Assembly (NCBI RefSeq): GCF_017876815.1
Contig: NZ_JAGIOS010000003.1
Span: 870,001-902,000, forward strand
Direction of reading: 5' to 3'
Source: Sinorhizobium meliloti
GTDB taxonomy: Bacteria; Pseudomonadota; Alphaproteobacteria; Rhizobiales; Rhizobiaceae
DNA: 32,000 nt
Below the pieces are notes generated by a model that saw only the letters and a program-made list of their open reading frames with translations, made no database searches and was not told the origin of the DNA. Each line of letters opens with the position of its first letter. Positions within the stretch are counted from its first letter, which is position 1. Shown here piece by piece: positions 6,348 to 32,000 of this stretch. A program made the position numbers and the translations under genes.

Positions 6348-7409
6348 ATGTCAACCACCCCGACTGTGCATTTCGAAGCGGCAAGTACTCTTGCCGTCGT
6401 GGTCTCGTCCCACGAACCTCTGCTTTTCCTGTCCGACGACCTGAAAATCATCGCAGCGAGCGCCTCATTCTGCCGGGCCTTCGACATAGACCCCACGTCA
6501 GTTCCCGGCAAAAAGCTCGGCGAACTCGGACAGGGGGAATGGGCGATGCCCAAGCTTGAGTCACTCCTAAAAGCTACAGCCTCGCGAAGTGCGGACATTC
6601 AAGCCTATGAAATAGACCTAAAGCGGCCGAACCGCGGCACACGGCAGTTGGTCGTCAATGCACAGACGCTTGATGATGGTGACGTCGAACATATTCGCCT
6701 TCTTGTGGCCGTGACGGACGTGACCGATGCGCGCGCAGAGGCGCGACTGAAAGACGACCTGGCCCGCGACAAGGCCATCCTGCTGCAGGAAGTTCAACAC
6801 AGGGTCGCCAACAGTCTCCAGATCATTGCAAGTGTTCTGATGCAGAGCGCACGGCGGGTTCAGTCGGAGGAAGCGCGTGGCCATCTTCACAACGCCCATC
6901 ACCGGGTGATGTCGATTGCGGCTCTCCAGCGACAGCTTTCCACGTCGCCGGGCGGCAGCGTCGAACTCCGCACATATTTGAAGCAGCTTTGCCAAAGCCT
7001 CGGTGCATCGATGATAGCTGACCCTAGCCGGCTGTCGATCCACGTTTCGGCCGACGACAGCGCAGTGGAAGCGGATGTTTCCGTCAGCTTAGGACTTATC
7101 GTGACCGAGTTGGTCATCAATGCCTTGAAACACGCCTTTCCCGACGAGCGGACCGGCACAGTCATGATTGACTATCGATCCTCCGGCAGAGACTGGACCC
7201 TCGCGGTTGCCGACAACGGCATCGGCATGGCTGCAGGGCGCGACGCACCCAAGGCGGGCTTGGGAACCGGCATTGTGGAGGCGCTCGTCAAGAACCTGGA
7301 CGGCGAGATCACGTTGAGCGATGCAGGTCCCGGCACCATGGTCACAATCGGCCATCAAGAAAGCGCTGGGTTCCAAGCAAATCTTTCTCCATTCGTATAT
7401 GCCAGGTGA
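6348..7409 (+). CDS. PAS-domain sensor histidine kinase, HisKA_2/HWE-type
   Basis: N-terminal PAS-like region. H-box LLQEVQHRVANSLQIIASVL. HATPase_c motifs ELVINALKHAF, DNGIGM and GLGTGIVEALV. Confidence 0.9.
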   Translation: MSTTPTVHFEAASTLAVVVSSHEPLLFLSDDLKIIAASASFCRAFDIDPTSVPGKKLGELGQGEWAMPKLESLLKATASRSADIQAYEIDLKRPNRGTRQLVVNAQTLDDGDVEHIRLLVAVTDVTDARAEARLKDDLARDKAILLQEVQHRVANSLQIIASVLMQSARRVQSEEARGHLHNAHHRVMSIAALQRQLSTSPGGSVELRTYLKQLCQSLGASMIADPSRLSIHVSADDSAVEADVSVSLGLIVTELVINALKHAFPDERTGTVMIDYRSSGRDWTLAVADNGIGMAAGRDAPKAGLGTGIVEALVKNLDGEITLSDAGPGTMVTIGHQESAGFQANLSPFVYAR

Positions 7410-10040: not shown

Positions 10041-10925
10041 GTGGTTACCGCAAAGGAAGTTGTCGGACTCCATGAAGGCGTAAAATCCCTAAGCCTCGGG
10101 TACTACTCATCATGCGCCCTGATGGTCGACGGAACTGCCAAGTGTTGGGGTGAAAATGGAGGTCCAACTTATCGGCTACTCGCCACTGGCAGCACGGCGG
10201 AGTTCGTGACGACGCCGGAGACGGTGACACAGTCAGGGATTGTTCTCCACTCTCGCGGCCTCAGTAGCTCCTGCTTTGTCCTGAGCAAGGAGGTCCGTTG
10301 CACCGACAATACCGGAGCCAAGAAGTTGGTCAGCGGCCTAAGCACAGGCATCTCGGAAATCTCCTCAGGGTACGCACACCAGTGCGTCCGCATGAACTCT
10401 GGAGAGGTTCGTTGCTGGGGCGTTGGTAGAGCTGGTCAGCTTGGAAACGGGGGGACATCCTTCAGCAGTACACCTGTCGTCGCCACGGGCGTTTCGAATG
10501 CGGTCCAGGTGTCCGCGATGAATGACTTCACCTGTGCATTGACACAGGCCGGAGCGGTTATGTGCTGGGGAACGGGATATGGCGCGACACCGGCAGTGGT
10601 TCCAGGCTTGGAAAGCGGCGTGAGTGCTATCACGACGGGGCATGCTGCTTCGAACCTCTGTGTTATCATGCAAAACGGCGGCGTGAAATGTAAAGGAAAC
10701 GGCACCGCTGGGCAGCTGGGCAACGGCCAAAACAAGAGTTTGAATGTGATGGTCGATGTCATCGGATTGGAGGCTCCGGCGATCTCGTTGTCCACTTCGC
10801 TCGCGAGCAGCTGCGTGGTTCTGTCCAATGGTAAGACGCTATGCTGGGGCAACAACGGAAACGGCCGTCTCGGCGTAGGCGATACGGCGAATAGGAACGT
10901 ACCAACGCCGGTGGTGCTGCCGTGA
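10041..10925 (+). CDS. RCC1-repeat (beta-propeller) protein, apparently 5'-truncated
   Basis: Repeated motifs KCWGENGG, RCWGVGRAGQLGNG, MCWGTGYG, KCKGNGTAGQLGNG and LCWGNNGNGRLGVG at roughly 50-aa spacing. No signal peptide or N-terminal domain. The frame is open back to 9978, where it abuts the helicase remnant. GC looks lower than in the flanks. Confidence 0.7.
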   Translation: MVTAKEVVGLHEGVKSLSLGYYSSCALMVDGTAKCWGENGGPTYRLLATGSTAEFVTTPETVTQSGIVLHSRGLSSSCFVLSKEVRCTDNTGAKKLVSGLSTGISEISSGYAHQCVRMNSGEVRCWGVGRAGQLGNGGTSFSSTPVVATGVSNAVQVSAMNDFTCALTQAGAVMCWGTGYGATPAVVPGLESGVSAITTGHAASNLCVIMQNGGVKCKGNGTAGQLGNGQNKSLNVMVDVIGLEAPAISLSTSLASSCVVLSNGKTLCWGNNGNGRLGVGDTANRNVPTPVVLP

Positions 10926-15813: not shown

Positions 15814-16232
15814 TCGCGCGCCAAACCGAATCGACGCTTGCAGTTTTTGAGGCGGAGAGTTTCGTGGGAAGAATGGTTTTGCTCACCAATGGCAACCCAA
15901 AGGTCACCAACGGCGCTAGGACGCATCGCAGCGGCTCGAGTAGAGACGGAGGTGACAGACACTAGAGAGTAGCCCGCTATCGGTCCAAGCGGACCGTCAA
16001 CTTTCAGGAAATGCCAAAGGCGACCTGAATGACCGACTTGGGCGCGCAAAAGAGACGTGGGCATATAGCATTCGGGCCCTTTGCTGCCGTTCGAGGTCGC
16101 AACGTGCGGTATGTGCTAGAATGCAACCGAAGGGCGGAACGCGACAGACGCACTGCGAGGGGCGGTGTGATCGAACCGGAATTCGCGCGACCGAGAGCCG
16201 GCGTTGTGCTCTTGGAAGGGGAGACGAGGACG

Positions 16233-17342
16233 ATGCCGACACCAGAGCGACCCAGTCTAATAGTTCGACAGAAATCCCCACAGAACATCGAGTTTCCGTT
16301 TGCGTCGCTCTCCGATTGGCTGATCCCAACCGAGCTGTTCTTCGTGCGAAACCATTTCGCGTCGCCGGACCTCGATGCGCGAGACTGGAGATTGCGCGTT
16401 GGCGGGGCGGTGGAGCGGCCAATCGAACTTGACCTCGACAGCATCAAGGCGATGCGGAGCACGATTTTCACCGCCGTCGTCGAGTGCGCAGGGAACGGGC
16501 GCGTCTACTATGAGCCGCCGAAGGAGGGGTTGCAGTGGCAGAACGGAGCCGTCGGCAATGCCGCGTGGACAGGTGTTCTTCTGCGCGAGATCTTGGAAAT
16601 GGCGGGCGTTAAGCGAACCGCACGTGAGGTTCTGCTCGTAGGCGCAGACAGCGGCGTCGTCGACACGAACAAGAAAACGGCTTCTCCCGGCCGCATCGCT
16701 TTTGCCCGCAGTTTACCGCTTGAGAAGGCAATGGCTCACAGCACGATCCTTGCCTATTCGATGAACGAGGAGGCGTTGACGCGCGATCACGGCTACCCGC
16801 TACGCGCGGTCGTGGGTGGCTGGTTCGGCATGGCTTGGGTTAAGTGGATCACGCATATCACGGTTGTGGAGCAACCGTTCCTTGGCTACTGGCAGGCGCG
16901 CGACTATTTCCGTTGGGAGCGCAGCCTCGGGGAACCCAGGCTGATCCCGCTTGCGGAGATGGAGGTCAAAGCACAGATCGCGCGTCCCGTGCAGGGGGCG
17001 CATCTCATCGCCGGCCAACCGTATCGGATTTTCGGAGCCGCCTGGAGCGGAGAGGCTGTTATCCGGCAGGTGCAGGTCTGCACCGGCGATGGCAGGGGCT
17101 GGCGCGAGGGAAGGCTCCTCGAAACAGAACGTCCCTTTGCATGGCGCTTGTGGGAGTACATGTGGACCCCTGAAGAAGTCGGGCGATATATACTGCGATG
17201 TCGCGCGATCGATGGGGCGGGGTGCGTGCAGCCCGAGCTCCCGCGTTCCGACTGCGAGAGCTACGCGGCCAATTGGATCGTTCCGGTGGAGGTTACGGTC
17301 GTTCCCGAGCCACAGACGTACGAGGAGGAATTCGTGATCTAA
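16233..17342 (+). CDS. Sulfite-oxidase-family molybdopterin oxidoreductase (369 aa, no signal peptide)
   Basis: FFVRNHF...WRLRVGG...VECAGNGR...WQNGAVGNAAWTGVLLREIL...HGYPLRAVVGGWFGMAWVKWITHI are SUOX-fold motifs, followed by a C-terminal dimerisation-type domain. ATG 16233 has GAGGA upstream. The longer track start at 16029 adds an Arg-rich, non-protein-like extension. Confidence 0.85.
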   Translation: MPTPERPSLIVRQKSPQNIEFPFASLSDWLIPTELFFVRNHFASPDLDARDWRLRVGGAVERPIELDLDSIKAMRSTIFTAVVECAGNGRVYYEPPKEGLQWQNGAVGNAAWTGVLLREILEMAGVKRTAREVLLVGADSGVVDTNKKTASPGRIAFARSLPLEKAMAHSTILAYSMNEEALTRDHGYPLRAVVGGWFGMAWVKWITHITVVEQPFLGYWQARDYFRWERSLGEPRLIPLAEMEVKAQIARPVQGAHLIAGQPYRIFGAAWSGEAVIRQVQVCTGDGRGWREGRLLETERPFAWRLWEYMWTPEEVGRYILRCRAIDGAGCVQPELPRSDCESYAANWIVPVEVTVVPEPQTYEEEFVI

Positions 17343-19135: not shown

Positions 19136-19306
19136 GCCTCGCCCCCGAACACTCTTCCCGCTCTAGGAGAATATCGATGTCCTAGACAACTGCAATCGCC
19201 TTGTGGGTGCCAAGTCGCGGGGAGACGCAATCCGCTTCTTTTGCGGTTTCATTGACAACGAACGCGTCGCCGGCTCAATCTTCGGTAGTTCCAAGAGGAC
19301 GGCGCT

Positions 19307-22069
19307 TTGGAAGAGGAAATACGCTTCGGGCCATTCCGGTTAATCCCCTCCAGGCGCAGCCTGTTGAAGGAGGGAGCAGCGGTGCCGCTGGGAAGCCGGG
19401 CGCTCGACATCCTGTCATTCCTCGCATCGCATCCCGGCGAGTTGAAGACCAACAACGAGATCGTGAAGCAGGTCTGGCCCAATACGTTCGTCGACGAGGC
19501 GAACCTCAGGGTGCATCTCTCGGCGCTCCGAAAGGCACTTGGGGATACCCAACGTTCTCCGCGGTTCTTAAGCAACGTTCCGGGACGCGGATACGCGTTC
19601 ATCGCCCCTCTGGAACGGGACAACCAGGCAGCCTCCCCACGTGTCGCTCCGCTTGCGAATTCGCACTCCGGACGCTTTCCCGCGCGCATTTTCGGCCGGG
19701 AGGAAAGCATCGCAGGAATTGCGGGCCAGCTGACCAAGGAGCGGCTGGTCACGATCTGCGGACCAGGCGGCATTGGCAAGTCAACCGTCGCGAAAGCCGT
19801 CTTGTCGAGGTGTGCGGCAGACCTTAACGCTATCTGGATCGACCTCTCGGAAGTCGGGAACGGAGTTCTGATCCCCACCGTGGTCGCGTCGGAGCTGGGC
19901 ATCCTGATCCGCACCGACAACATTTTGAAGGACATAAACGCACATCTTGATGGGCGTAATGTGGTGGTCGTCCTGGACAGTTGTGAGCACGTTGTGGAGC
20001 ACGCTGCCGAATTTGCGGAAGCGCTGCTGGATCAGACAACATCCCCGCGAATACTCACAACGAGCCGCGAGCCTCTCCGCGCACGCGGCGAACGCGTCTA
20101 CCGCCTGCAGCCTTTGGGTCTTCCTCCGTCTGCCGCCACCGCCGCGGCCGCTTTGATCTCCCCGGCGGTCCAGCTGTTCGTGGATCGTGCCGACGCCTGT
20201 CTTGGAGGGTACGAACTTTCGGATGTCGACGCGCCCTACGTCGCGGAAATCTGCTCGAGGCTCGACGGCATCGCGCTGGCAATCGAGCTTGCGGCGGGCC
20301 GCCTTGAGTCCCTTGGCATAGCCGCACTGTCACGGTCCCTCTCCGATTGCTTCCGCGTGCTGTCGCGCGGCCGAAGGACGGCGCTTCCCCGGCATCAGAC
20401 GCTTCGTGCGACGATCGACTGGAGCTATCTGCGCCTCCCGCCCCCCGAGCAGCAGGCTCTGAAAGAACTTTCGGTCCTGCCAGGCGGCTTCACGGGAGAA
20501 ACCGCGCGCGCCGTTATCTCCAGCGCCGAAGCCGACGACCTTCTTGCGGCGCTCGTGTCGAAATCGTTGCTGGTCGCGGACACCCATTACGGTGAGCCTA
20601 TTTATCGCCTGCTCGACACCACCCGCCTTTACGCTTTGGAGAAACTGGCCGACGCCGGAGAGTTCTCCGTTGTCATGTCCAGCTTTTCCGAACACCTCAT
20701 CGCGTTGCTGGAGGCGGCGGAAGAGGAGATTTATTCCGTCTCGATGGACGAGTGGTCGCAGGATTTCGCGCAGCAGGTGCCTGGCCTTCGCGCTGCGCTC
20801 GACTGGGGCTTCGGCAAATCGGGCGACATCCTCCGAGCGGTACGATTGACCGTGGCCGCTCTGCCCCTCTTCTTCCGCCTCTCCCTACTCGACGAATGTC
20901 TGGTCGCCGTAACCAAGGCGCTCGGCCACCTCGACGTGCGACCCGACCTCGACGAGCGGAGCAGGATGAAGCTGTACGCTGCGCTTGGATGGCCACAGAT
21001 GCGATCCACCGATGCGTCGAAGCATGGCATAGCCGCATGGACGACCGCCCTGCACATCGCGGAAAAGCTGGGCGACATCGACTACCAGCTGCGTGCCATA
21101 TGGGCGCTGTGGGTAGACGCCATAAACCGAGGGGAGCCGAGACTCGCCCTCGAGCTGGTCGATCGTTATCTGGCAGTCGCGCCATCCGCGCCCGACCGAG
21201 CAGACGTTATCATCGGACGCCGCATGCATGGAGCAACGCTGCACTGGCTCGGCCGACATGCCGAAGCGGCGGACGAGCTCCGGATGATGCTGGCCGATTA
21301 CGAGACCGTTCCCGACGGGCGGCATTCCGTCCGTTTCCAGTTCGACCAGCGAGTGACCGCGAGGATCATTCTGGCGCGGTGCCTTTGGGTCCTGGGGGAA
21401 GAGGATGCCGCCCTCCGTGAGATCGCAGAGACTCTCAGTCACGCGCTGGACATCCGCCACCACCTTTCGCTCAGCAACGTCCTGGCGGAGGCGGCATGTC
21501 CCATAGCTTTGCTTTCCGGCCGGAACGAGCTCGCAGCAGAATACATCCAGCTTTTGCGCGAACACACGAAAGCGCTGTCACTCGATGTCTGGAACACCTA
21601 TGCGGACTGCTTCGAGTCCGAACTTCAGCTCAGAGCGGGAAAGCCGGGCGAGTGCCTGACGCAGATACGCTCGAGCATGGGCGTGCTCGTCGGGGCAGGC
21701 TTCACGCTCTTCCAGACGATCTTCCAGACGACGGAGGCCAAGGCTCTTGCCGCCTCAGGCTGCCTAGATGAGGCGCTGGTGGTAATAAATGCAGCGCTCG
21801 GCCGCTGCGCCTCTTCTGGCGAGCGCTGGTGCCTGCCCGAGCTTCATCGAGTCAAGGGGCAGATAGAAGCCCAGACGGCGGGCGGTGGACCGTCGGCACT
21901 GGCCGCGTTCGAAACCGCTCTCGAAAGCGCCCTCGTCGACAGGGCGGAGGGATGGAAACGTCTCATCGTGGAGGACATCGCCCAGTGCCGCGCCGCGCTG
22001 GCCGCTGCCCAAGGCGGGATGCACCCACCGCCAATCAGTCCCCCAGGCGATCCTTCCGTGCCTTCGTGA
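19307..22069 (+). CDS. OmpR/PhoB-type winged-helix DNA-binding domain fused to a P-loop NTPase (NB-ARC/STAND-like) and TPR-like helical repeats
   Basis: N-terminus FGPFRLIPSRRSLLKEGAAVPLGSRALDILSFLASHPGELKTNNEIVKQVWPNTFVDEANLRVHLSALRKAL...GRGYAF. Walker A GPGGIGKST (nt 19760-19783). Walker B VVVVLDSCEH. Long helical C-terminus. TTG start with AGAGGA 8 nt upstream. Confidence 0.85.
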   Translation: MEEEIRFGPFRLIPSRRSLLKEGAAVPLGSRALDILSFLASHPGELKTNNEIVKQVWPNTFVDEANLRVHLSALRKALGDTQRSPRFLSNVPGRGYAFIAPLERDNQAASPRVAPLANSHSGRFPARIFGREESIAGIAGQLTKERLVTICGPGGIGKSTVAKAVLSRCAADLNAIWIDLSEVGNGVLIPTVVASELGILIRTDNILKDINAHLDGRNVVVVLDSCEHVVEHAAEFAEALLDQTTSPRILTTSREPLRARGERVYRLQPLGLPPSAATAAAALISPAVQLFVDRADACLGGYELSDVDAPYVAEICSRLDGIALAIELAAGRLESLGIAALSRSLSDCFRVLSRGRRTALPRHQTLRATIDWSYLRLPPPEQQALKELSVLPGGFTGETARAVISSAEADDLLAALVSKSLLVADTHYGEPIYRLLDTTRLYALEKLADAGEFSVVMSSFSEHLIALLEAAEEEIYSVSMDEWSQDFAQQVPGLRAALDWGFGKSGDILRAVRLTVAALPLFFRLSLLDECLVAVTKALGHLDVRPDLDERSRMKLYAALGWPQMRSTDASKHGIAAWTTALHIAEKLGDIDYQLRAIWALWVDAINRGEPRLALELVDRYLAVAPSAPDRADVIIGRRMHGATLHWLGRHAEAADELRMMLADYETVPDGRHSVRFQFDQRVTARIILARCLWVLGEEDAALREIAETLSHALDIRHHLSLSNVLAEAACPIALLSGRNELAAEYIQLLREHTKALSLDVWNTYADCFESELQLRAGKPGECLTQIRSSMGVLVGAGFTLFQTIFQTTEAKALAASGCLDEALVVINAALGRCASSGERWCLPELHRVKGQIEAQTAGGGPSALAAFETALESALVDRAEGWKRLIVEDIAQCRAALAAAQGGMHPPPISPPGDPSVPS

Positions 22070-22089: not shown

Positions 22090-22117
22090 TTTACACCGAT
22101 TTACAACTCGCAACTCG
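22090..22117 (+). promoter_or_regulatory. Candidate operator, site 1: TTTACACCGATTTACAACTCGCAACTCG
   Basis: TTTAC direct repeats start 10 bp apart, followed by a tandem CAACTCG CAACTCG. The site ends 49 nt upstream of the DJ-1-like start. About 22/31 positions are shared with site 2 at the same spacing. Confidence 0.4.
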
Positions 22118-22165
22118 TCCGCCCTCCCCGATCCGTGCACAAATGCCAGGAAGAGGAGAGTGCAA

Positions 22166-22714
22166 ATGGACCATGCCACACCGATCCGCCTATTGGTCAT
22201 TCTGTCGGCGGATATGGTCAGAGAGTCCCCGAACGATGAAATACGCATAGAGCGAATTGCGCACGTCTACTACATGTTCAAGGACTTAGAGGCGGACGTC
22301 GTTCTCGCCACGCCAACGGGCGGATATGCCGCACTTGCTTCCGATCTGCGCCAGTGCCCAAGCGAGGAGCCATGCGTTCAACGCTTTCTCTCGGATCGCG
22401 AGGCGCGAGATGACCTTGCGGATACCCTGAGCCTCGACCAGATCGTCATCGACGATTTCGACGCAGCGTTCTGCTTCGGATTTTCAGGATCAATCTGGGA
22501 GGCGGACGAGCTGGGCGTCGCGCCCGTAATCCGCGCATTCCTGGCAGACCAGAAGCCCGTGGCGATCATCCCCGGCCGAGGCCTCGACATCGCTGCCGAA
22601 GGTGCGGGGAGCGGCTTGCTGGTCGTCGGGGACAGTGGGCAGGCTGCGGCGCTCGCGGCACACGCACTCCTGAACGTGATCGAACTTCGCAGGCAGTTCG
22701 CGACGACGGCGTAA
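22166..22714 (+). CDS. DJ-1/PfpI-like (class I glutamine amidotransferase-like fold) protein, apparently lacking the nucleophile Cys
   Basis: Fold-typical layout: RLLVILS...VVLATPTGG...FDAAFCFGFSG...IRAFLADQKPVAIIPGRG. The position where family members have AICHG reads AIIPG. ATG 22166 has GAGGAG upstream. Confidence 0.5.
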   Translation: MDHATPIRLLVILSADMVRESPNDEIRIERIAHVYYMFKDLEADVVLATPTGGYAALASDLRQCPSEEPCVQRFLSDREARDDLADTLSLDQIVIDDFDAAFCFGFSGSIWEADELGVAPVIRAFLADQKPVAIIPGRGLDIAAEGAGSGLLVVGDSGQAAALAAHALLNVIELRRQFATTA

Positions 22715-22734
22715 CCGGCTAGCTACACCGCTCC

Positions 22735-22762
22735 TTTGCACGGATTTACGACACTTAACTCG
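22735..22762 (+). promoter_or_regulatory. Candidate operator, site 2: TTTGCACGGATTTACGACACTTAACTCG
   Basis: Same architecture as site 1. It ends 63 nt upstream of ATG 22825. GATTTAC was seen only at these two places in my scan of the window. Confidence 0.4.
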
Positions 22763-22824
22763 CGAAAACGCCCTTTCTGGAGGAGGTTGTAATCGGTCAG
22801 GCACACACCGCAAGGAAGATGCAA

Positions 22825-23802
22825 ATGGATGAACAATCAGACGCATTCACGGCGGAGGCCACACGGCGGGCCGTGCTGCTTGCGGGAGGTTTCGCCGTCG
22901 CCGCAATGGTATTGCCCGGCAAAACGTCGGCCGCGCCTCCAGAGACTTCAACCGGGAAGAGGAGTGAGGACATGTCGTTCATCAAGACCCAGGACCAAAC
23001 GAAAATCTTCTACAAGGACTGGGGACCACGCGACGCCCAGCCCATCGTCTTCCATCACGGGTGGCCGCTGAGCGCCGACGACTGGGACGCCCAGATGATG
23101 TTCTTCCTGGACAAGGGTTATCGTGTCATCGCGCATGACCGCCGCGGCCATGGCCGTTCGACGCAGACGTGGTCCGGCAACGAGATGGACACCTATGCAG
23201 CCGATGTCGCGGCGCTGACGGATGCACTTGATCTCAAGGACGCGGTCCATGTCGGCCACTCGACGGGCGGCGGCGAGGTCGCGCACTATGTCGCAAGGGC
23301 CAAGCTGGGGCGCGTTGCGAAAGCCGTGCTGATCGGCGCGGTTCCGCCGGTTATGGTGAAGTCGGACAAGAACCCCGGCGGCTTGCCGATCGAGGTCTTC
23401 GACGGCTTTCGCGCCGCGCTCGTCGCCAACCGCGCCCAGTTCTTCCTCGACGTTCCTGCCGGGCCGTTCTACGGCTTTAACCGTCCCGGCGCGAAAATCA
23501 GCCATGGCGTCATCGACAACTGGTGGCGGCAGGGCATGATGGGTGGCGCGAAGGCCCATTACGACTGCATCAAGGCCTTCTCCGAGACGGACTTCACCGA
23601 AGACCTCGAGGGGATAGCGGTGCCGACGCTGGTCATGCACGGCGACGACGACCAGATCGTCCCTTATGCCGACTCCGCTCCGCTTTCGGTCAAGCTCCTA
23701 AAGAACGGCACGCTCAAGACCTACGAAGGCCTGCCTCACGGCATGTGCACCACCCACCCCGAAATCATAAACGCGGACCTGCTGGACTTCATCCGCGACT
23801 GA
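22825..23802 (+). CDS. Alpha/beta hydrolase of the cofactor-free (non-heme) chloroperoxidase/perhydrolase type, with an N-terminal Tat-like signal extension
   Basis: [19 protein letters not shown]...[17 protein letters not shown]...HDRRGHGRS...[10 protein letters not shown]...[10 protein letters not shown]...GLPHGM. The upstream extension contains [24 protein letters not shown]. An alternative canonical start, ATG 22972, has its own SD. Confidence 0.85.
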
Positions 23803-23818: not shown

Positions 23819-23868
23819 GGCGAGCCGCACCGCGACCATCGTTTCGGTGCGGCTCGCCATCCTGTTTG
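23819..23868 (+). terminator. Strong stem-loop (perfect 13-bp stem) after the hydrolase gene; candidate terminator or attenuator
   Basis: GGCGAGCCGCACC (23819-23831) pairs with GGTGCGGCTCGCC (23846-23858) across a 14-nt loop. It is followed by ATCCTGTTTGCC, a weak T tract. Confidence 0.55.
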
Positions 23869-23910: not shown

Positions 23911-24372
23911 GTGACAACCGTCCTCGCACTGCTCATCGGCATCATCGCAGGCCTTCGTGCAATGACAGCCCCGGCGGCCGTCGCCTGGGCGGCCCACCTC
24001 GACTGGTTCGATGTCTCCGGGACGCCGCTCGCTTTCATGGGATACAGGTGGACGCCCTGGATTTTTACGGCGCTGGCGCTCATCGAGCTCGTCACCGATC
24101 AGCTCCCGAACACCCCGTCCCGCAAAGTGCCGATGCAATTCGGCGCTCGCATTCTCATGGGGGCACTCGCCGGGGGCACCGTTGGCGCGGCTGGAGGGTC
24201 TCTCGCCGGAGGCTTACTCGCTGGCACGCTTGGTGCGATTGCCGGGACGCTTGGGGGTGCTGCCGCCCGAGGCAAACTCGCTGCAGCGTTTCGACGCGAC
24301 ACTCCGGCCGCCCTCATCGAGGATGCCGTAGCTACCGGCGGCGCTCTCCTCATCGTGGCGGCCGTGCCATGA
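23911..24372 (+). CDS. DUF4126-like integral membrane protein
   Basis: IAGLRAMTAPAAVAWAAHLDW...ALALIELVTDQLPNTPSRKVP...ARILMGALAGG plus a Gly-rich C-terminal half. GTG 23911 has AAGGGGGAA upstream. The longer track ORF from 23812 would read through the terminator hairpin. Confidence 0.7.
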   Translation: MTTVLALLIGIIAGLRAMTAPAAVAWAAHLDWFDVSGTPLAFMGYRWTPWIFTALALIELVTDQLPNTPSRKVPMQFGARILMGALAGGTVGAAGGSLAGGLLAGTLGAIAGTLGGAAARGKLAAAFRRDTPAALIEDAVATGGALLIVAAVP

Positions 24373-24409: not shown

Positions 24410-25210
24410 ATGACACAAGGAACAGCACTTATCACCGGAGCCTCATCAGGCATCGGCGCGGTATACGCCGAACGCCTGGCTCGCCGGGGTCACGATCTCA
24501 TTCTCGTCGCCCGTGACTTCGACCGCCTGAAATCATTGGCCAGCAGCCTGTCAGGCGACCACGGCGTGGTCGTCACGCCTCTGATCACAGACCTTACCAG
24601 CGCTGCCGATCTGGAACGGGTACTGGCGAAGCTTCGGACGGACGCCGGGATATCCCTGCTTGTGAACTGTGCCGGCATCGGCCCGAACGGCCCTTTGCTG
24701 GCATCGGACCTTAACGGTCTCAGCAAGATGGTGCAGCTCAATGTCGACGTCCTGCATTCCCTGACCGCGACGGCGGCGAACGCCTTTGCGCGCCGCCGCA
24801 ACGGAGCGATCATAAACATAGCTTCCGCGGTGGCGCTGTTGCCCGAGCGTTTTAACGCGACCTATGTTGCGACAAAGGCGTTCGTTCTTGCTCTGACGCA
24901 GGCGCTCTCCGCAGAACTCGAGCCGCACGGCGTCCGAATGCAAGCCGTGCTTCCGGGCTTTACGCGCACCGAGATATTCGACAGAGCCGGCATCGACATC
25001 AGCGTGATCCCCGAGGACATGATGATGGATGCGGGCGAGATGGTGGACGCGGCCCTAGCTGGCTTGGATCGTGGCGAGGTGGTGACGATCCCCTCGCTCG
25101 CCGACAGCGACCTCTGGGAGCAGCATGAAAGGACAAGACGCGACCTCGGGCCGCACCTCTCGCTGAAACATGCGGCCGCACGGTATCGGCCGAGAGGAGA
25201 GACGAGATGA
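24410..25210 (+). CDS. Short-chain dehydrogenase/reductase (SDR) family oxidoreductase
   Basis: TGASSGIG cofactor motif, NAG-like NCAG, and the catalytic Y-x3-K in ATYVATKAF. Confidence 0.9.
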   Translation: MTQGTALITGASSGIGAVYAERLARRGHDLILVARDFDRLKSLASSLSGDHGVVVTPLITDLTSAADLERVLAKLRTDAGISLLVNCAGIGPNGPLLASDLNGLSKMVQLNVDVLHSLTATAANAFARRRNGAIINIASAVALLPERFNATYVATKAFVLALTQALSAELEPHGVRMQAVLPGFTRTEIFDRAGIDISVIPEDMMMDAGEMVDAALAGLDRGEVVTIPSLADSDLWEQHERTRRDLGPHLSLKHAAARYRPRGETR

Positions 25211-26142
25211 GCGATCCAAGAGCAGTGCTATTCACGCGTCGCGACTTACTCTCAGTCACCGCCGTGGCGGCTTCGGCCGCAATGTTCCCGCCAGGCGTGT
25301 ACGCCTCCGGTTTCCATCGGTTCACGCACGGCGCGTTCGACATCACCGTCGTCAGTGACGGCTTCATTACACTGCCGGCCGAAATACTCCTGCCGGACAC
25401 CACGCCCGAGGAACGGCAGATGATAATGGCAAGGCTCGGCGGCAACGACCAAGGCGCGCCCGTGCAGGCCAACATTCCACTCATCCGCCACGGCGACGAC
25501 CTCATTCTGATCGACAACGGCTCCGGGTCGAATTTCCAGTCCACGGCCGGGAAGCTCGCGGTCAACCTCAGCGCCTTGGGCGTGGACCCCGCGAAGATCA
25601 CGAAGGTCGTCTTCACCCATGCCCATCCCGATCACTCGGGCGCGACGACCACCTCCGACGGCAAGGTTCTGTATCCCAATGCCCATTACTTCGTCAGCCG
25701 GGTCGAATGGGATTTCTGGACCGACAAGAACTTCGAAGCCAAAATGCCTCAAGTCCTGCACGGTTTCGCGCAGGGGGCCCAGCGCGACCTGTTCGCCGTA
25801 CGGGACCGACTGACACTCGTCAAACCGGGCGAGGAGATCGTGCCTGGCATGCTGGTCGTTGGCACCCCAGGCCATACGCCAGGTCACATCTCAATCGAAC
25901 TCGCCGGCGACGGGAACCTCCTCGTCACAGGGGACGCCTGCACCAATGATGTCATCTTCTTCGAGCATCCTTCATGGCATTTCGGCTTCGATACCGATGC
26001 GGAGACCGCGCTCAAAAGCAGGCAAATGCTCTTGGATCGGGCTGCGTCCGAGAAGTTGCGGATGCTCGGTTACCACTGGGCGTATCCAGGCATCGGGTAT
26101 GCGGAGCGTCGCGGGAGCGGCTATGCGTTCGTGAAGGCATAG
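25207..26142 (+). CDS. MBL-fold metallo-hydrolase with a Tat signal (lactonase-like subgroup)
   Basis: N-terminus FTRRDLLSVTAVAASAAMFPPGVYA. Metal motif HAHPDH (nt 25618-25635), then GHTPGH and a later TGD. The start overlaps the SDR stop (ATGA at 25207-25210). Confidence 0.85.
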   Translation: MSDPRAVLFTRRDLLSVTAVAASAAMFPPGVYASGFHRFTHGAFDITVVSDGFITLPAEILLPDTTPEERQMIMARLGGNDQGAPVQANIPLIRHGDDLILIDNGSGSNFQSTAGKLAVNLSALGVDPAKITKVVFTHAHPDHSGATTTSDGKVLYPNAHYFVSRVEWDFWTDKNFEAKMPQVLHGFAQGAQRDLFAVRDRLTLVKPGEEIVPGMLVVGTPGHTPGHISIELAGDGNLLVTGDACTNDVIFFEHPSWHFGFDTDAETALKSRQMLLDRAASEKLRMLGYHWAYPGIGYAERRGSGYAFVKA

Positions 26143-27208: not shown

Positions 27209-28828
27209 TTAGCTGACGGCGTCTGACCTGAAGTTCCAGGGCATGAGAGCTTCGATTTCGGATGCGGGCCAGCCTTGAGCGATGCGGGTCAAGGTCTCCG
27301 AGAGCCAGTCGAGCGGATCGACGCCGTTCATTTTGCAGGTCTGCAACAAGGTGGCCACCGTCGCCCAAGTTCGTCCACCGCCCTCGCTGCCGGCGAATAG
27401 GCTATTCTTTCTCGTAATTGTTTGGGGCCTGATCGCCCGTTCGACGATGTTGGAGTCGATTTCGATGCGACCGTCCGTCAGAAAGCGCTCCAGCGCCTCG
27501 CGCCGGGTGAGCGCGTAGCGGATCGCCTCGGCGGTTTTGGATTTTCCCGAGACTTTGCCCAGTTCCTTTTCCCAGAGCTCGAAGAGGCTGGCGACGGTGG
27601 TCGAGGATTTCTCCTGGCGCCGGGCCGCGCGGCTGTCGGCATCCTTACCGCGAACTTCATCCTCGATGCGCCAGAGCTCGGTCATTGCCAGGACAGTGTC
27701 TGTGGCGGCCTGCGAGACTCCGCTGATGTGCAGGTCATAAAACTTGCGCCGTAGATGTGCCCAACATCCTGCAAGCTGGACCGTTTCGTTGCTGCCGGTT
27801 TTGGCCCGCGTCTTGGCGAGATTAGTATAGGCCGAGTAGCCATCCACTTGCAGGATGCCGGTGAATCCGGAGAGATGACGCGTCACGCAATCCGCACCTC
27901 TGCTGTCTTCAAATCGATAGGCCACCATCGGCGGACTGGTTCCGCCATAGGGGCGGTCGTCGCGTGCGTAAGCCCAAAGCCAGGCCTTGGTGGTTTTGCC
28001 CGAACCGGGCGCAAGAGTGGGTAGGGTCGTCTCGTCGGCAAAGATCCTTTCGCTCTCCTTGACCCTCTCCAGGATATAATCGGCCAGCATCTGCAGTTCG
28101 AAGCCCAGATGCCCCATCCATTGGGCCATCAGCGATCGGCTGATCTCGACGCCATCACGCAAATAGATCGCTTCCTGCCGATAAAGAGGAAGGCCATCGG
28201 CGTATTTGGAAACGGCGATATAGGCGAGCAGCCGTTCCGTCGGCAGGCCGCCTTCGATGATGTGTGCCGGCGCCAAGGCCTGGACCACGCCGTCGCTGCC
28301 CCGGAAAGCGTATTTGGGGCGACGCGTCACGATAACCCTGAACTTCGGCGGCACTACGTCCAGCCGCTCGGAGCGGTCCTCTCCGATCAGAACCTTTGCC
28401 AGCCCCTCGCACCCGGCCGGGATTTCCGGCTCGATGACCTCTTCGATGCGCTCGAGATGGGCGGCAAAACCCTTGCGCGGACGCGGCGCTCGCTTCGGCT
28501 TGTCCTTGGCTGCGCGATCGAGTTCGCTGCGGATTGCCGATAGGCCGGTTTCGACCTCTTCGAAGGCAAAGGAGACCTGCTCGTCATTGACCCCGAGGCG
28601 GAGCCGCTCAGAGCGCTTGCCATTTTGCGTGCGCTGCAAAACCTTCATGATCAAGGTCAGGTTGGCAATCCGCTCGTTGGCGCTCTTCTCAACCGCCTCC
28701 AACCGCGCGATCTCAGCCTCGGCCACCTTCAGCCGGACCTCTTTCGCGGCTTGTTCGCGCGCCAACGCGAGAACCATCGCTTTCAGCGCATCAACGTCGT
28801 CCGGCAGGTCGCTAAGGGGCAAATCCAT
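27209..28828 (-). CDS. tnpC: IS66 family transposase TnpC
   Basis: 539 aa. N-terminal coiled-coil LPDDVDALKAMVLAL, a central DDE region and a conserved C-terminus, as in IS66/ISRm14-type transposases. Confidence 0.95.
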   Translation of the reverse strand: MDLPLSDLPDDVDALKAMVLALAREQAAKEVRLKVAEAEIARLEAVEKSANERIANLTLIMKVLQRTQNGKRSERLRLGVNDEQVSFAFEEVETGLSAIRSELDRAAKDKPKRAPRPRKGFAAHLERIEEVIEPEIPAGCEGLAKVLIGEDRSERLDVVPPKFRVIVTRRPKYAFRGSDGVVQALAPAHIIEGGLPTERLLAYIAVSKYADGLPLYRQEAIYLRDGVEISRSLMAQWMGHLGFELQMLADYILERVKESERIFADETTLPTLAPGSGKTTKAWLWAYARDDRPYGGTSPPMVAYRFEDSRGADCVTRHLSGFTGILQVDGYSAYTNLAKTRAKTGSNETVQLAGCWAHLRRKFYDLHISGVSQAATDTVLAMTELWRIEDEVRGKDADSRAARRQEKSSTTVASLFELWEKELGKVSGKSKTAEAIRYALTRREALERFLTDGRIEIDSNIVERAIRPQTITRKNSLFAGSEGGGRTWATVATLLQTCKMNGVDPLDWLSETLTRIAQGWPASEIEALMPWNFRSDAVS

Positions 28829-29652: not shown

Positions 29653-29708
29653 GCAGAAAATCCTCGATCAGCGCGTCAATTGATACGTGGGGGTCCCTAC
29701 GCGCTTAC

Positions 29709-29716
29709 GATATGAC
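29709..29716. repeat. Right copy of the 8-bp target-site duplication GATATGAC
   Basis: See 27193-27200. Confidence 0.9.
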
Positions 29717-30792
29717 TCGCCTGTCCGGACATTGCGCCCCTGAATTTCGTGACCGAAGAGCAACGTCCTTACACTTCCCGCGTCGAGGCGAACTCCCCGC
29801 TTTGGGGTGAAGCCGTCGGGGAGCTCCGGCACGACTGCCTTGCGCAGACCCACGAGTAGTCGTTCGAGGTTGACGTAATCCTTGAACGGAAATTCGACGG
29901 CGGCCATCAACCCTGTGTATTCAGGCTCCTGTGCTTGGGCCAGATATGGCTTGAGCCTCTCACGAGCTGCGGTTGCATCGGCGTCTCTGTCCAACTGACC
30001 GTAGGAGGAAATGAGCACCATGAGGCCAGAGTAGCCCGACCAAAAGTCCCAATACGAGGTTTCCTTCAGTTCCGGACCGATCTTTTCGAGGGCGACGACA
30101 GCTTCCTCGTAACGGTCCGTCGAGAAGTAGGCGAGTCCGGCAAGGAAGTAGCGCCAGCGCGACCAAGCGGGATCGACACGTGCTGCGGCATCAAGATTGT
30201 CGAGCCCATCCTCGACCCTGCCGTTAAAAATCATGGCCATACTCAGCGACTCGTAGTTGGAAGGGTCGCTGGCGTCGAGTGCTATCGCCCGCGAGGCGGC
30301 GGCGATAGCCTCATCGGACTTCTGCATCATGTTCAGTCTTCCGGCAAGGAGGCGGTAGTACGCCGGAGAGGGGTTCTTGGCGGCCTGTGCGAAGTATGCG
30401 TTTGCCCTGCTACGGGCTTCGTCCTGCGAAACCCCGAGTAGTTTTGAACGGGCCTCGGTCCAATGAGCTTCCCTATACATCCAGGCGAGTGCCGCCGCTG
30501 CATTGCCAAAGGCATCATCATGGGCCAACGCCTGCTCGTAGTACTTTACCGCCTCTATCCAATCCTCTGGCTTTTCCCTCAGCTCCAGTTCGCGGCCGAG
30601 CAGATATGCCTCGTACGCGGCAGGGTTAGTTGTTCCACCAGCGACCGCAGTTTGCTCGCTCGTGACCAGCCGAAGCTTGAGCGCCGTTGCGACCTCCCCA
30701 ACCATCCTGTCCTGCAACTCAAACACTGCTTTCCATTCGCCGTCGAACCGCTCCGCCCATATGTTGCCATTGGTCATGGAGTCGATGAGTTT
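29709..30792 (-). pseudogene. Middle (TPR-repeat) segment of the disrupted cyclase-TPR gene
   Basis: Track ORF 29668..30777. KLIDSMTNGNIWAERFD followed by TPR-like repeats (AYEAYLLGREL, AVKYYEQALAHDD, etc.). The last 41 nt of the track ORF are IS66 sequence. Confidence 0.7.
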
Positions 30793-31718
30793 GCATTGAT
30801 GCGCATTTGGCCCCCGGTGCGACGCAGGCTGCCTTCCAGGATGTAGCGAACGCCCAATTGTGTCGAAACGTCTGATGGCAGGCGGGGCTTGTCTTTGAAG
30901 GTGAATGCGGCATTGCGTGAGATCACGAACAGCCCGGGAATGCGTGCCAGTTCCGTTGTCAAATCCTCGGTGAGTCCGTCGGCCAGATAGCCCTGTTCTG
31001 TGTCGGTGCTCAGGTTGTCAAAGGGCAACACGACAAGCGAGGGGCGGGTATCAGAGCTAACAACGGAGGCATCGCCCCCCGGCTGCCATGGCTGCCACCA
31101 TGTTAGTCCCGCAAATAAAAGGGTGGCGATCCCTATGGCGGCTACATGAACAGCTCCGGATTGCCGGTCTCTCCTTGCTCCGCTGATTTTGCCCTCTGTC
31201 ACCGGATCGAGCACCACGCGATAGACCCGGATGGGCTCCGAGATGCTCTTGACCTTCTGCTCGCCCAGCGCACGGTAGCCGATGGCGAGCTTGGATTTGA
31301 CGTGGTCGTATGTGGTTCCGGATATCGCGATGCCGCCGGGTTCCGCCAGCACCTGCATGCGGTCAGCTATGTTGACACCGTCGCCGTGAATGTCGTCGCC
31401 TTCGACGATGATGTCGCCTAAATTGACGCCGATGCGGAAAACCATTCGCTGTTCGGGCGGCAAGGCCGCGTTGCGCCGAGCTTTCTCCTGCTGCAGTTCC
31501 ACCGCGCAGTGCAGGGCGTCCACCACGCTGTGGAACTCGACAAGGACGCCGTCTCCCATTGTCTTCACAAGCCGGCCGTGATGCTGGGCGGTTCTCGGTT
31601 CGAAGAGTTCGCGCAGGTCGCTGTGGAAGAGAAGACGCGTTCTCGCTTCATCGATCTCGCTCATCCGGCTGTAACCGACGACATCCGCAATCAGCACTGC
31701 TGCTAGACGGCGCTCCAT
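30774..31718 (-). pseudogene. N-terminal segment: class III adenylate/guanylate cyclase domain, TM helix and a TolB-N-like periplasmic region
   Basis: MERRLAAVLIADVVGYSRM...LVKTMGDGVLVEF...FRIGVNLGDIIVEGDDIHGDGVNIADRM..., then the TM helix VAAIGIATLLFAGLTWW, then LVVLPFDNLS...YLADGLTEDLTTELAR. It ends prematurely through a frameshift at about 30790. Confidence 0.75.
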
Positions 31719-31893
31719 GCCCGTCTCTTCCCGGGGGCGACCCCCAAAACAATATCTTACAACACGTCGCGTGCCGGTGCCATCACCGTCACTGCGGCTT
31801 CCAATACCTGGCCCAGCAGAGGGGAGTTGCGGTACACGGCGGCGGGCCGATCCTGTCGCGGGAATTTGGAAGCCTGCTGAAAATAGGAAAGCA

Positions 31894-32000
31894 ATGACAC
31901 ATCGAACAGCACTTATTACCGGAGGCTCCTCGGGCATCGGCGCGGTTTACGCCGAACGTCTGGCGCGCCGGGGTCACTATCTTATCCTCGTCGCCCGCGA
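31894..32000 (+). CDS. SDR family oxidoreductase (5' part only, runs off the window); paralog of 24410-25210
   Basis: MTHRTALITGGSSGIGAVYAERLARRGHYLILVAR compared with MTQGTALITGASSGIGAVYAERLARRGHDLILVAR. The nucleotide similarity extends into the SD region. Confidence 0.8.
   Translation, partial: MTHRTALITGGSSGIGAVYAERLARRGHYLILVAR

Follow-up and report, generated by a model that had tools for sequence, protein, structure and literature searches.

Which DNA does a large one-component regulator with its own NTPase and helical-repeat array read, and which genes answer to it? The question is raised by a 32,000-nucleotide (nt) stretch of Sinorhizobium meliloti DNA (contig NZ_JAGIOS010000003.1, positions 870,001 to 902,000; called the window below), which encodes a regulator fusing a winged-helix DNA-binding domain to a STAND NTPase and a TPR-like array. 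A sequence-only reading of the window had proposed that two similar 28-bp sites downstream of the regulator gene bind this protein and control the two genes that follow. As far as sequence comparison reaches, that proposal is supported. The two sites are conserved across distant Alphaproteobacteria, and for this reason they are very probably binding sites of the adjacent regulator; the 28-bp motif probably serves as its activator operator at a weak sigma-70-type promoter. The features on which the argument turns are the following.

19307 to 22069, + strand: regulator gene, 920 amino acids (Pfam, PDB hits, AlphaFold model, and Foldseek)
22090 to 22117, + strand: putative operator 1, type A, TTTACACCGATTTACAACTCGCAACTCG; units start at 22090 (TTTAC), 22100 (TTTAC), and 22110 (GCAAC)
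22166 to 22714, + strand: predicted target gene 1, DJ-1/PfpI/Hsp31-fold protein, 182 amino acids (homolog alignment, model, and Foldseek)
22735 to 22762, + strand: putative operator 2, type B, TTTGCACGGATTTACGACACTTAACTCG; units start at 22735 (TTTGC), 22745 (TTTAC), and 22755 (TTAAC)
22825 to 23802, + strand: predicted target gene 2, alpha/beta-hydrolase with a Tat-type signal peptide (Pfam Abhydrolase_1 and N terminus)

Two sites in the window and their counterparts in other genomes

Both 28-mers were found where the sequence-only reading had placed them, and an ungapped comparison of the two gives 22 identities in 28 positions. Site 1 begins 20 nt after the end of the regulator gene and ends 49 nt before the ATG at 22166, and site 2 ends 63 nt before the ATG at 22825, in agreement with the spacings first reported. 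A degenerate 18-mer, TTTRCACSGATTTACRAC, with up to 3 mismatches allowed, matched only these two places on both strands of the 32 kb (expected count, 0.07). Scored against a 26-position consensus, both sites reached 26/26, the next best of about 64,000 window positions reached 17, and block-shuffled windows reached 17 to 20. The same scoring found no third consensus-like site in the window, including before the DUF4126, SDR, and MBL genes located farther downstream.

Short strings around the two sites are also shared, in the S. meliloti clade only. The string TGCAAATGGA spans the start codons of both target genes (22161 to 22170 and 22820 to 22829), and CGCCCT follows shortly past the operator in both intergenic regions; other genera keep neither string. 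The two intergenic regions may thus have undergone local duplication or gene conversion. Other identities considered for the motif itself were rejected. A dispersed repeat or mobile-element end does not fit two copies in 32 kb with unconserved flanks and with all sites codirectional with the downstream gene, and a CtrA box (TTAA-N7-TTAAC) does not fit a single TTAAC with no TTAA 11 nt upstream.

Conservation was assessed by a regulator-first test, in which contigs of distant regulator orthologs (47 to 59% identity) retrieved by protein search were checked for the motif. The loci came from Sinorhizobium RAC02, Thalassospira, Marinibaculum, a Roseovarius metagenome-assembled genome (MAG), and four metagenome or MAG contigs; an Azospirillum contig that ends 51 nt past the regulator stop codon (L018) and an ortholog with no contig (P0066) were left out of the count. 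In 8 of 8 testable distant loci, the motif or a TTCAC variant of it precedes the genes that follow the regulator, within flanking DNA that cannot be aligned. The motif is thus present at orthologous promoters, where the sequence-only reading had said that its absence would speak against regulator binding, and it accompanies regulator orthologs in several alphaproteobacterial orders, within diverging flanks. Close relatives (91 to 92% identity) also retain both sites, which is weak evidence at such a short distance.

The most telling locus is that of Sinorhizobium sp. RAC02, where the regulator and the small protein are 59% and 49% identical to the window proteins and the intergenic regions contain TTAACACGGATTTACAACTCTCAACTCG and TTTGCATCGATTTACGACGCTTAACTCG but are otherwise unalignable to the window. 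Thalassospira australica, Marinibaculum pumilum, and the Roseovarius MAG (all 56%) have the gene order and both sites as in the window. Two contigs at 47 to 49% each encode two divergent regulator paralogs, with motif variants before the small protein, the MBL hydrolase, and the alpha/beta hydrolase, and two contigs at 49 to 51% (L027 and L028) carry TTCACACGGTTTCACA(C/T)C(G/C)CTTCATTCG directly after the regulator.

Sorted by the gene they precede, type-A orthologous sites lie before the DJ-1-like gene at nine loci (L001, L002, L005, L007, L009, L010, L017, L019, and L021), and a counterpart of operator 1 lies before the small protein downstream of the regulator at two more (L020 and L022). 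Type-B orthologous sites precede the alpha/beta-hydrolase gene at L005, L009, L010, L015, L017, L019, L020, L021, and L022, the MBL gene at L009, L020, and L022, and the DUF4126 gene at L011 and L012.

The reverse approach, a motif-first exact-pattern scan of metagenome contigs with CAYSGATTTACRACNCNYAACTCG, returned 10 contigs, 9 of them in the same gene set. The regulator, DJ-1-like, hydrolase, or MBL gene adjoins the site in 7 of the 10, and L011 and L012 have it between an RsgA-like GTPase gene and a DUF4126 homolog. The tenth contig (L008), where the first unit is poor and the low-GC surroundings encode MotA/MotB, was treated as a chance match. A separate candidate locus, L003, was set aside as an unrelated winged-helix protein of the Oscillospiraceae. 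A blastn search of 72,556 plasmids with the type-B 31-mer gave 9 records, of which 5 were convincing, and all 5 lie on replicons that agree in organism and size with those encoding regulator orthologs. The regulator is the sole transcription-factor gene common to all loci, which span several orders.

The Roseovarius MAG also carries a third operator-like site (TTTACATCCATTTTCAGCGATTAACCCG, 21/26, at L021 4044 to 4071), about 2 kb upstream of the regulator and ahead of an uncharacterized open reading frame of about 235 to 255 amino acids, a possible extra member of the regulon.

Putative operator units and predicted promoter geometry

Expressing an anchored alignment of 27 nonredundant sites as information content per column defines the limits of the element. 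Conservation starts abruptly at position 1 and stops at position 28, and the flanks are near background except for two columns, position 50 (A in 25/27) and position 54 (T in 21/27), which played no part in site selection. We take these two for −11 and −7 within a −10 hexamer at positions 49 to 54, 20 bp past the motif, since they are spaced like the A and T of such a hexamer. On this reading, the motif would span about −60 to −33. The last three bases of the motif, TCG, are nearly invariant and fall at the start of a −35 hexamer with a 17-bp spacer (in operator 1, at 22115 to 22117), and there is no −35 beyond this terminal TCG. The corresponding window hexamers are as follows.

22138 to 22143, + strand: predicted −10 of the DJ-1-like gene promoter, CACAAA, with A at 22139; putative transcription start near 22150
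22783 to 22788, + strand: predicted −10 of the hydrolase promoter, GAGGTT, with A at 22784 and T at 22788, at the same 20-bp distance; putative transcription start near 22795

A consensus scan found no canonical sigma-70 promoter in either intergenic region, and the −10 emerged only from the anchored multispecies profile. The weak −10, the missing −35, and the lack of a promoter in the consensus scan suggest a promoter unable to work alone, and thus an activator.

The motif itself is repetitive. Self-identity of the sites is 0.515 at a 10-bp shift, compared to 0.16 to 0.32 at the other shifts between 4 and 14. The helical phasing described by the sequence-only reading is therefore borne out by this peak, but its count of two repeats is not, since three units were found. 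Stacked, these are TTTRCAYSGA, TTTACRACNC, and TYAACTCG, which share TTWRC; the third is more degenerate, and in L020 and L022 it is a plain TTTAC. Every site is oriented toward its downstream gene. Type A sites, before the DJ-1-like gene, keep A4, A16, and C22 across genera, and type B sites, before exported hydrolases and DUF4126, keep G/T4, G16, and T22.

A further site had been suggested upstream of the regulator gene, as a possible autoregulatory element.

19239 to 19266, + strand: proposed third site, overlapping TTGACA (19252 to 19257), which is followed after 16 nt by CTCAAT (19274 to 19279)

This suggestion did not hold. The site scores 13 to 15 of 26, a background level (in the window, a score of 14 occurs at about 300 positions and a score of 15 at 107), and it is not conserved as an operator, its TTT parts varying even among 91%-identical relatives. 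What relatives keep, including a 69% ortholog (L010), is TTGACA-spacer-CTCAAY, and the proposed site is likely part of the sigma-70-type promoter of the regulator gene. Across orthologous loci, no operator-like site was found directly upstream of the regulator gene, with one weak exception in L022 (19/26), where four clear 10-bp units (ATTTGCAAAG twice, ATTTTCAGCG, and ATTGATTCG) lie before a gene of the AP-endonuclease family, itself located ahead of the regulator, in the shared intergenic region. Both L022 (1792 to 8766) and L020 (1777 to 8769) encode two divergently oriented regulator paralogs about 1.4 kb apart with the AP-endonuclease-family gene between them. A small protein of 142 to 150 amino acids is encoded after one paralog, and MBL and alpha/beta-hydrolase genes lie after the other; each paralog has its own operator variant.

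The regulator, its paralogs, and their repeats

The description of the regulator as an OmpR/PhoB-type winged helix fused to a STAND NTPase-TPR module was upheld by a Pfam match, a structural model, and Foldseek. Trans_reg_C (PF00486) matches residues 24 to 98 with 56.9 bits (cutoff, 26.2), and the best PDB sequence matches of the DNA-binding domain are CadC (4e-12) and ToxR (5e-9), ahead of OmpR and PhoB. The winged helix occupies about residues 1 to 105 and is followed by the STAND NTPase (NOD) and a C-terminal TPR-like helical array; a Walker A motif (GPGGIGKS) and an hhhhD motif (VVVLDSCEH) can be read directly in the sequence. An AlphaFold model built from 24 orthologs (predicted local distance difference test score [pLDDT], 85) contains the winged helix, a disordered linker at residues 106 to 116, an NTPase that includes helical and winged-helix subdomains, and a stretch of some 400 residues folded as paired helices (approximately 487 to 903). 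Foldseek placed the STAND-TPR structure 6mfv first for the body of the protein (5e-12), followed by Apaf-1, CED-4, plant NLRs, and MalT, all with a probability of 1.0. For the N terminus it returned ToxR-DNA complexes, with template modeling (TM) scores of 0.84 to 0.85 and root mean square deviations of 1.4 to 1.5 Å (8b4b; TM, 0.84; 1.5 Å; 32% identity). The TPR assignment is also supported by partial NCBIfam TPR matches and by TPR_4/TPR_12 Pfam matches recorded for orthologs.

Several domains that might have been expected were not found. The regulator has no Response_reg (receiver) domain, its winged helix starting at residue 2 to 4, and Pfam detects no BTAD, for which a linker of roughly 20 residues, with Walker A beginning about 45 residues past the winged helix, leaves no room. 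Neither sequence nor model suggests a transmembrane segment or periplasmic sensor, although no formal transmembrane predictor was applied. Assignment to the HilA/EilA family was rejected (NF009037, 26.5 bits against a cutoff of 589, in the DNA-binding domain only), as was identity with a SARP, which the lack of a BTAD contradicts even though the overall logic resembles that of AfsR.

The start codon differs between annotations. The strain R14 GenBank start, equivalent to GTG 19382, drops the first beta-strands of the winged helix, and TTG 19307, with AAGAGGA 7 nt upstream, fits a Trans_reg_C match from model position 2 and a CadC alignment from residue 4. The deposited R14 start is probably too far downstream.

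The family is large and carries generic names. Proteins built in this way are very common in Alphaproteobacteria: of 8,000 scored protein candidates, 7,670 reach an E value of ≤1e-50. Orthologs are recorded in databases as "winged helix-turn-helix domain-containing" or "ATP-binding" proteins. Full-text searching of the literature turned up only work on the actinobacterial SARP/AfsR branch and on STAND proteins in general, and no characterized protein of this architecture outside that branch.

The sequence of the repeats shifts along with the recognition helix of the adjacent regulator. The helix EANLRVH(I/L/V)SALRKAL is invariant in every ortholog with TTTAC units. In contrast, TTCAC units accompany NLRAQ in L027 and NLRFQ in L028, both 49 to 51% orthologs, and again the NLR(A/F)Q helix in L006 and L023. 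More distant paralogs have repeat blocks of their own.

L006 7862 to 7888, L023 6350 to 6376, and L025 6322 to 6350: paralog repeat blocks (Bosea, S. meliloti LMB1, and Indioceanicola), of the GAATTCAC type or the CACAC/TTCAC type

Beside these regulators, which are 35 to 39% identical to that of the window, the blocks are 10-bp phased, lie right after the regulator gene, and end 19 to 20 bp before a CAnnnT or AAGGAT hexamer. For example, the Bosea and S. meliloti LMB1 paralogs (37 to 39%, NLRAQ) have ACAAGAATTCAC-SAKRATTCWCTGGC with CATCKT 19 nt on, before an alcohol dehydrogenase-tautomerase-hydrolase-MBL cluster, and the Indioceanicola paralog has TCACACCACTTCACACATCTTAAGTCG with AAGGAT after 20 nt, before a 2Fe-2S/molybdopterin oxidoreductase. 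Conserved architecture with a shifted repeat sequence is what would be expected if each regulator reads the block beside its own gene.

Proposed activation, rival readings, and predicted output genes

These results are consistent with a mechanism in which a ligand bound by the C-terminal TPR array would release autoinhibition, allowing the STAND NTPase to switch to its ATP form and multimerize. Several ToxR/CadC-like winged helices would thereby be brought together to fill the three repeats cooperatively, with one recognition helix per TTTAC unit and the three head-to-tail 10-bp units on one face of the helix. The promoter-proximal protomer, beside the −35 position, would then recruit RNA polymerase. 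Two separate transcription units would respond in the window, one for the DJ-1-like gene and one for the Tat-exported alpha/beta-hydrolase, and in other genomes the output would additionally include MBL-fold hydrolase and DUF4126 genes. The mechanism is proposed by analogy to STAND-TPR proteins (PMC6468293), MalT, and AfsR (PMC10936776); for STAND-TPR proteins, PMC6468293 gives a model in which inducer and ATP produce the multimer.

Several observations weigh against activation by this regulator through three equivalent units. Window site 1 has A rather than T at the predicted −7, with a T one base later. Positions between the pentamers are strongly conserved and differ systematically between types A and B, differences that three identical half-sites leave unexplained; graded affinity or an additional contact could account for the class-specific bases. 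Sites in the profile were picked by similarity to the consensus, so the information within positions 1 to 28 is partly circular, but the flank and −10 columns are unaffected. The STAND Pfam matches of the regulator are subthreshold (nSTAND1, 24.5 against 27.1; NB-ARC, 18.9 against 23.5; and AAA). Finally, the covariation between helix and repeat comes from few lineages and is imperfect, since L020, L022, and L025 keep RVH yet have some TTCAC units.

The sign of regulation is the point on which the closest rival differs. If the adjacent regulator bound the motif as a repressor, occluding the −35 position and blocking RNA polymerase until a ligand made the protein let go, the 3′ end of the motif would be suitably placed, and the linkage and covariation evidence is silent on sign. 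The promoters themselves make repression unlikely, however: a repressed promoter is expected to be intrinsically strong, whereas these have no usable −35, only two conserved −10 positions, and no match in a sigma-70 scan, as is typical of activator-dependent promoters. OmpR, PhoB, ToxR, and SARP relatives whose repeats end at or near −35 are activators. The STAND regulators MalT and AfsR are likewise activators, and the AfsR repeats reach the −35 region (PMC10936776).

Two further rivals remove the adjacent regulator altogether. An unlinked transcription factor such as an OmpR-family response regulator could bind the motif, with conservation of the operon neighborhood accounting for the proximity of the regulator gene. 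TTTAC-N5-TTTAC does resemble OmpR-class half-sites generally, and the L011 and L012 sites lie beside an RsgA-like GTPase gene on short contigs with no regulator. This explanation is nonetheless quite improbable, given that no other transcription-factor gene is common to all the loci, that the repeats shift with the neighboring recognition helix even in paralogs with other targets, and that all five good plasmid matches fall on replicons agreeing with regulator-encoding ones. Very little credence can be given to the idea that no dedicated factor is involved and that intergenic duplication spread a core-promoter or UP-element-like block (phased A/T tracts with a −35 remnant) or a promoter for an alternative sigma factor. 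Phased T-tracts are able to function as UP elements, and the strings shared by the two S. meliloti-clade intergenic regions suggest their common descent. Outside that clade, however, the flanks are unrelated and the 28-mer is nearly invariant, which neutral inheritance after duplication cannot explain, and the block is restricted to this gene set. An extracytoplasmic function (ECF) sigma promoter fails because AAC lies 23 nt, not 16 to 17 nt, from the −10, because the neighborhood has no conserved gene for a sigma factor, and because A at −11 with T at −7 is a housekeeping-type −10 signature. An RNA element was also rejected: an Rfam scan of the whole window matched no family, and transcription is predicted to begin only downstream of the motif.

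The proposed system belongs to a known kind, that of one-component activators acting through phased direct repeats beside their own genes. Like AfsR and the large SARPs of Streptomyces (winged helix-turn-helix, BTAD, NOD/STAND, and TPR), the regulator has an OmpR-class winged helix at its N terminus, joined to a STAND NTPase and a TPR module. AfsR activates weak promoters via direct repeats reaching the −35, with one protomer per repeat (PMC10936776), an arrangement that we infer here as well. The afs box consists of two 11-bp repeats at −40 to −19, centered at −29.5 and overlapping the −35 element and spacer (PMC10936776), whereas the operator described here has three 10-bp units at about −60 to −33. 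Unlike AfsR, the regulator lacks a BTAD, its DNA-binding domain is ToxR/CadC-like rather than SARP-like, its hosts are alphaproteobacterial, and its predicted targets are small hydrolase and DJ-1 genes rather than antibiotic clusters.

Other systems share single parts of this design. CadC and ToxR have the closest DNA-binding domains by sequence, and ToxR is closest by fold. The ToxR box, TNAAA-N5-TNAAA, repeats its unit directly at a 10-bp interval (PMC8517210). The putative operator shares this phasing and, on the opposite strand, a similar A-tract repeat, but it has three units, which read G(T/Y)AAA on the strand of the ToxR box. ToxR and CadC are membrane anchored, whereas the signal module here is a cytoplasmic STAND NTPase with TPRs. 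With OmpR and PhoB, the regulator shares the Trans_reg_C domain and a type of site whose head-to-tail repeats are set one helical turn apart. The half-sites of OmpR resemble TTTAC or GTTAC, and pho boxes replace the −35. In contrast to those proteins, the regulator has no receiver, its activation would presumably be driven by ligand- and ATP-dependent multimerization rather than phosphorylation, and its operator has three units rather than a dimer site. MalT of Escherichia coli (8bob, 1.5e-5) and the archaeal protein PH0952 (6mfv) have a similar STAND core and helical-repeat sensor. Inducer and ATP convert MalT into a multimer that cooperatively occupies repeated boxes next to the −35. Its DNA-binding domain, however, is a C-terminal LuxR-type helix-turn-helix reading unrelated hexamer boxes, where the regulator has an N-terminal winged helix.

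The predicted output genes encode a small DJ-1-fold protein and exported hydrolases. No Pfam or NCBIfam family was found for the 182-amino-acid protein, which belongs to a narrow family (32 clusters at 90% identity) with a nearly invariant Cys103. Its model (pLDDT, 83) matches 1u9c (7e-6), YDR533c/Hsp31, and glyoxalase III in Foldseek, supporting at the level of the predicted fold the DJ-1-like assignment made by the sequence-only reading; the public (PGAP) name "transporter" was rejected on the same fold evidence. The hydrolase matches Pfam Abhydrolase_1 (2e-31) and has a twin-arginine motif, TRRAVLL; its start at 22825 agrees with the MNEQS... N termini of orthologs. A second Met (MSFIKTQD...) lies where cytoplasmic homologs begin. 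Additional genes and a hairpin lie downstream.

23819 to 23858, + strand: GC-rich hairpin with a 14-bp stem (RNA fold and shuffles)
23911 to 24372, + strand: DUF4126 gene (annotation)
24410 to 25210, + strand: SDR gene (annotation)
25207 to 26142, + strand: Tat-signal MBL-fold hydrolase gene, AidB-lactonase-like below cutoff
27209 to 28828 (− strand), 29668 to 31937 (− strand), 16029 to 17342 (+ strand), 6348 to 7409 (+ strand), and 10041 to 10925 (+ strand): accessory genes around the cluster

The hairpin lies directly 3′ of the hydrolase stop codon and folds at −48 kcal/mol (z = −6.4), a stability matched by 0 of 200 shuffles. It has no T-run and is probably a terminator or RNA stabilizer that would close the hydrolase transcription unit and separate it from the DUF4126 gene. 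The MBL-fold hydrolase also has an N terminus of the twin-arginine type (FTRRDLLSV...), and its similarity to the AidB lactonase is subthreshold. From these signal sequences, both the alpha/beta-hydrolase and the MBL hydrolase are probably exported, which would make the enzymatic output of the cluster periplasmic. The Roseovarius cluster also holds an isochorismatase and a catalase. It is speculation that the output genes point to a response to a reactive or ester/lactone-type small molecule; individually, they are probably ordinary stress or detoxification metabolism of an accessory plasmid.

The sequence of the window is 100% identical to a pSymA-type megaplasmid of S. meliloti SM11. In the homologous region of strain R14, the annotated order is regulator, 182-amino-acid "transporter," alpha/beta hydrolase, DUF4126, SDR, and MBL-fold hydrolase. 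The surroundings include an IS66-family transposase, a TPR protein and an adenylate/guanylate cyclase in tandem, a sulfite-oxidase-like molybdoenzyme, a PAS/HWE histidine kinase, and an RCC1-repeat protein. The DNA around the cluster looks like accessory megaplasmid material.

Apparently undescribed so far are the family itself, in which a ToxR-like winged helix is fused directly to NOD-TPR, its predicted regulon, and the putative triple-repeat operator at −60 to −33. A broader synthesis, which we put forward tentatively and regard as possible rather than probable, is that this is the first operator and regulon of a large NLR-like (STAND) one-component activator family in Alphaproteobacteria. 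In such a family, a ToxR-type winged helix would be fused to a NOD-TPR body whose oligomer loads at least three DNA-binding domains on 10-bp-phased repeats ending at −35. An H-for-T/Q-for-C code at base 3 of the repeat would diversify paralogs toward different adjacent detoxification and hydrolase gene sets, and the type A and B classes may set the order of induction.

The putative 28-bp operator, the predicted promoter geometry, a minimal regulon (the DJ-1-like protein, the Tat-exported alpha/beta- and MBL-hydrolases, and DUF4126), and a candidate specificity residue make a large unannotated regulator family directly testable. The signal read by the TPR arm could be screened with two short promoter fusions. 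The system would offer a proteobacterial counterpart to AfsR and MalT for studying how STAND oligomerization is coupled to promoter activation, and the regulons of many paralogs would become predictable from sequence.

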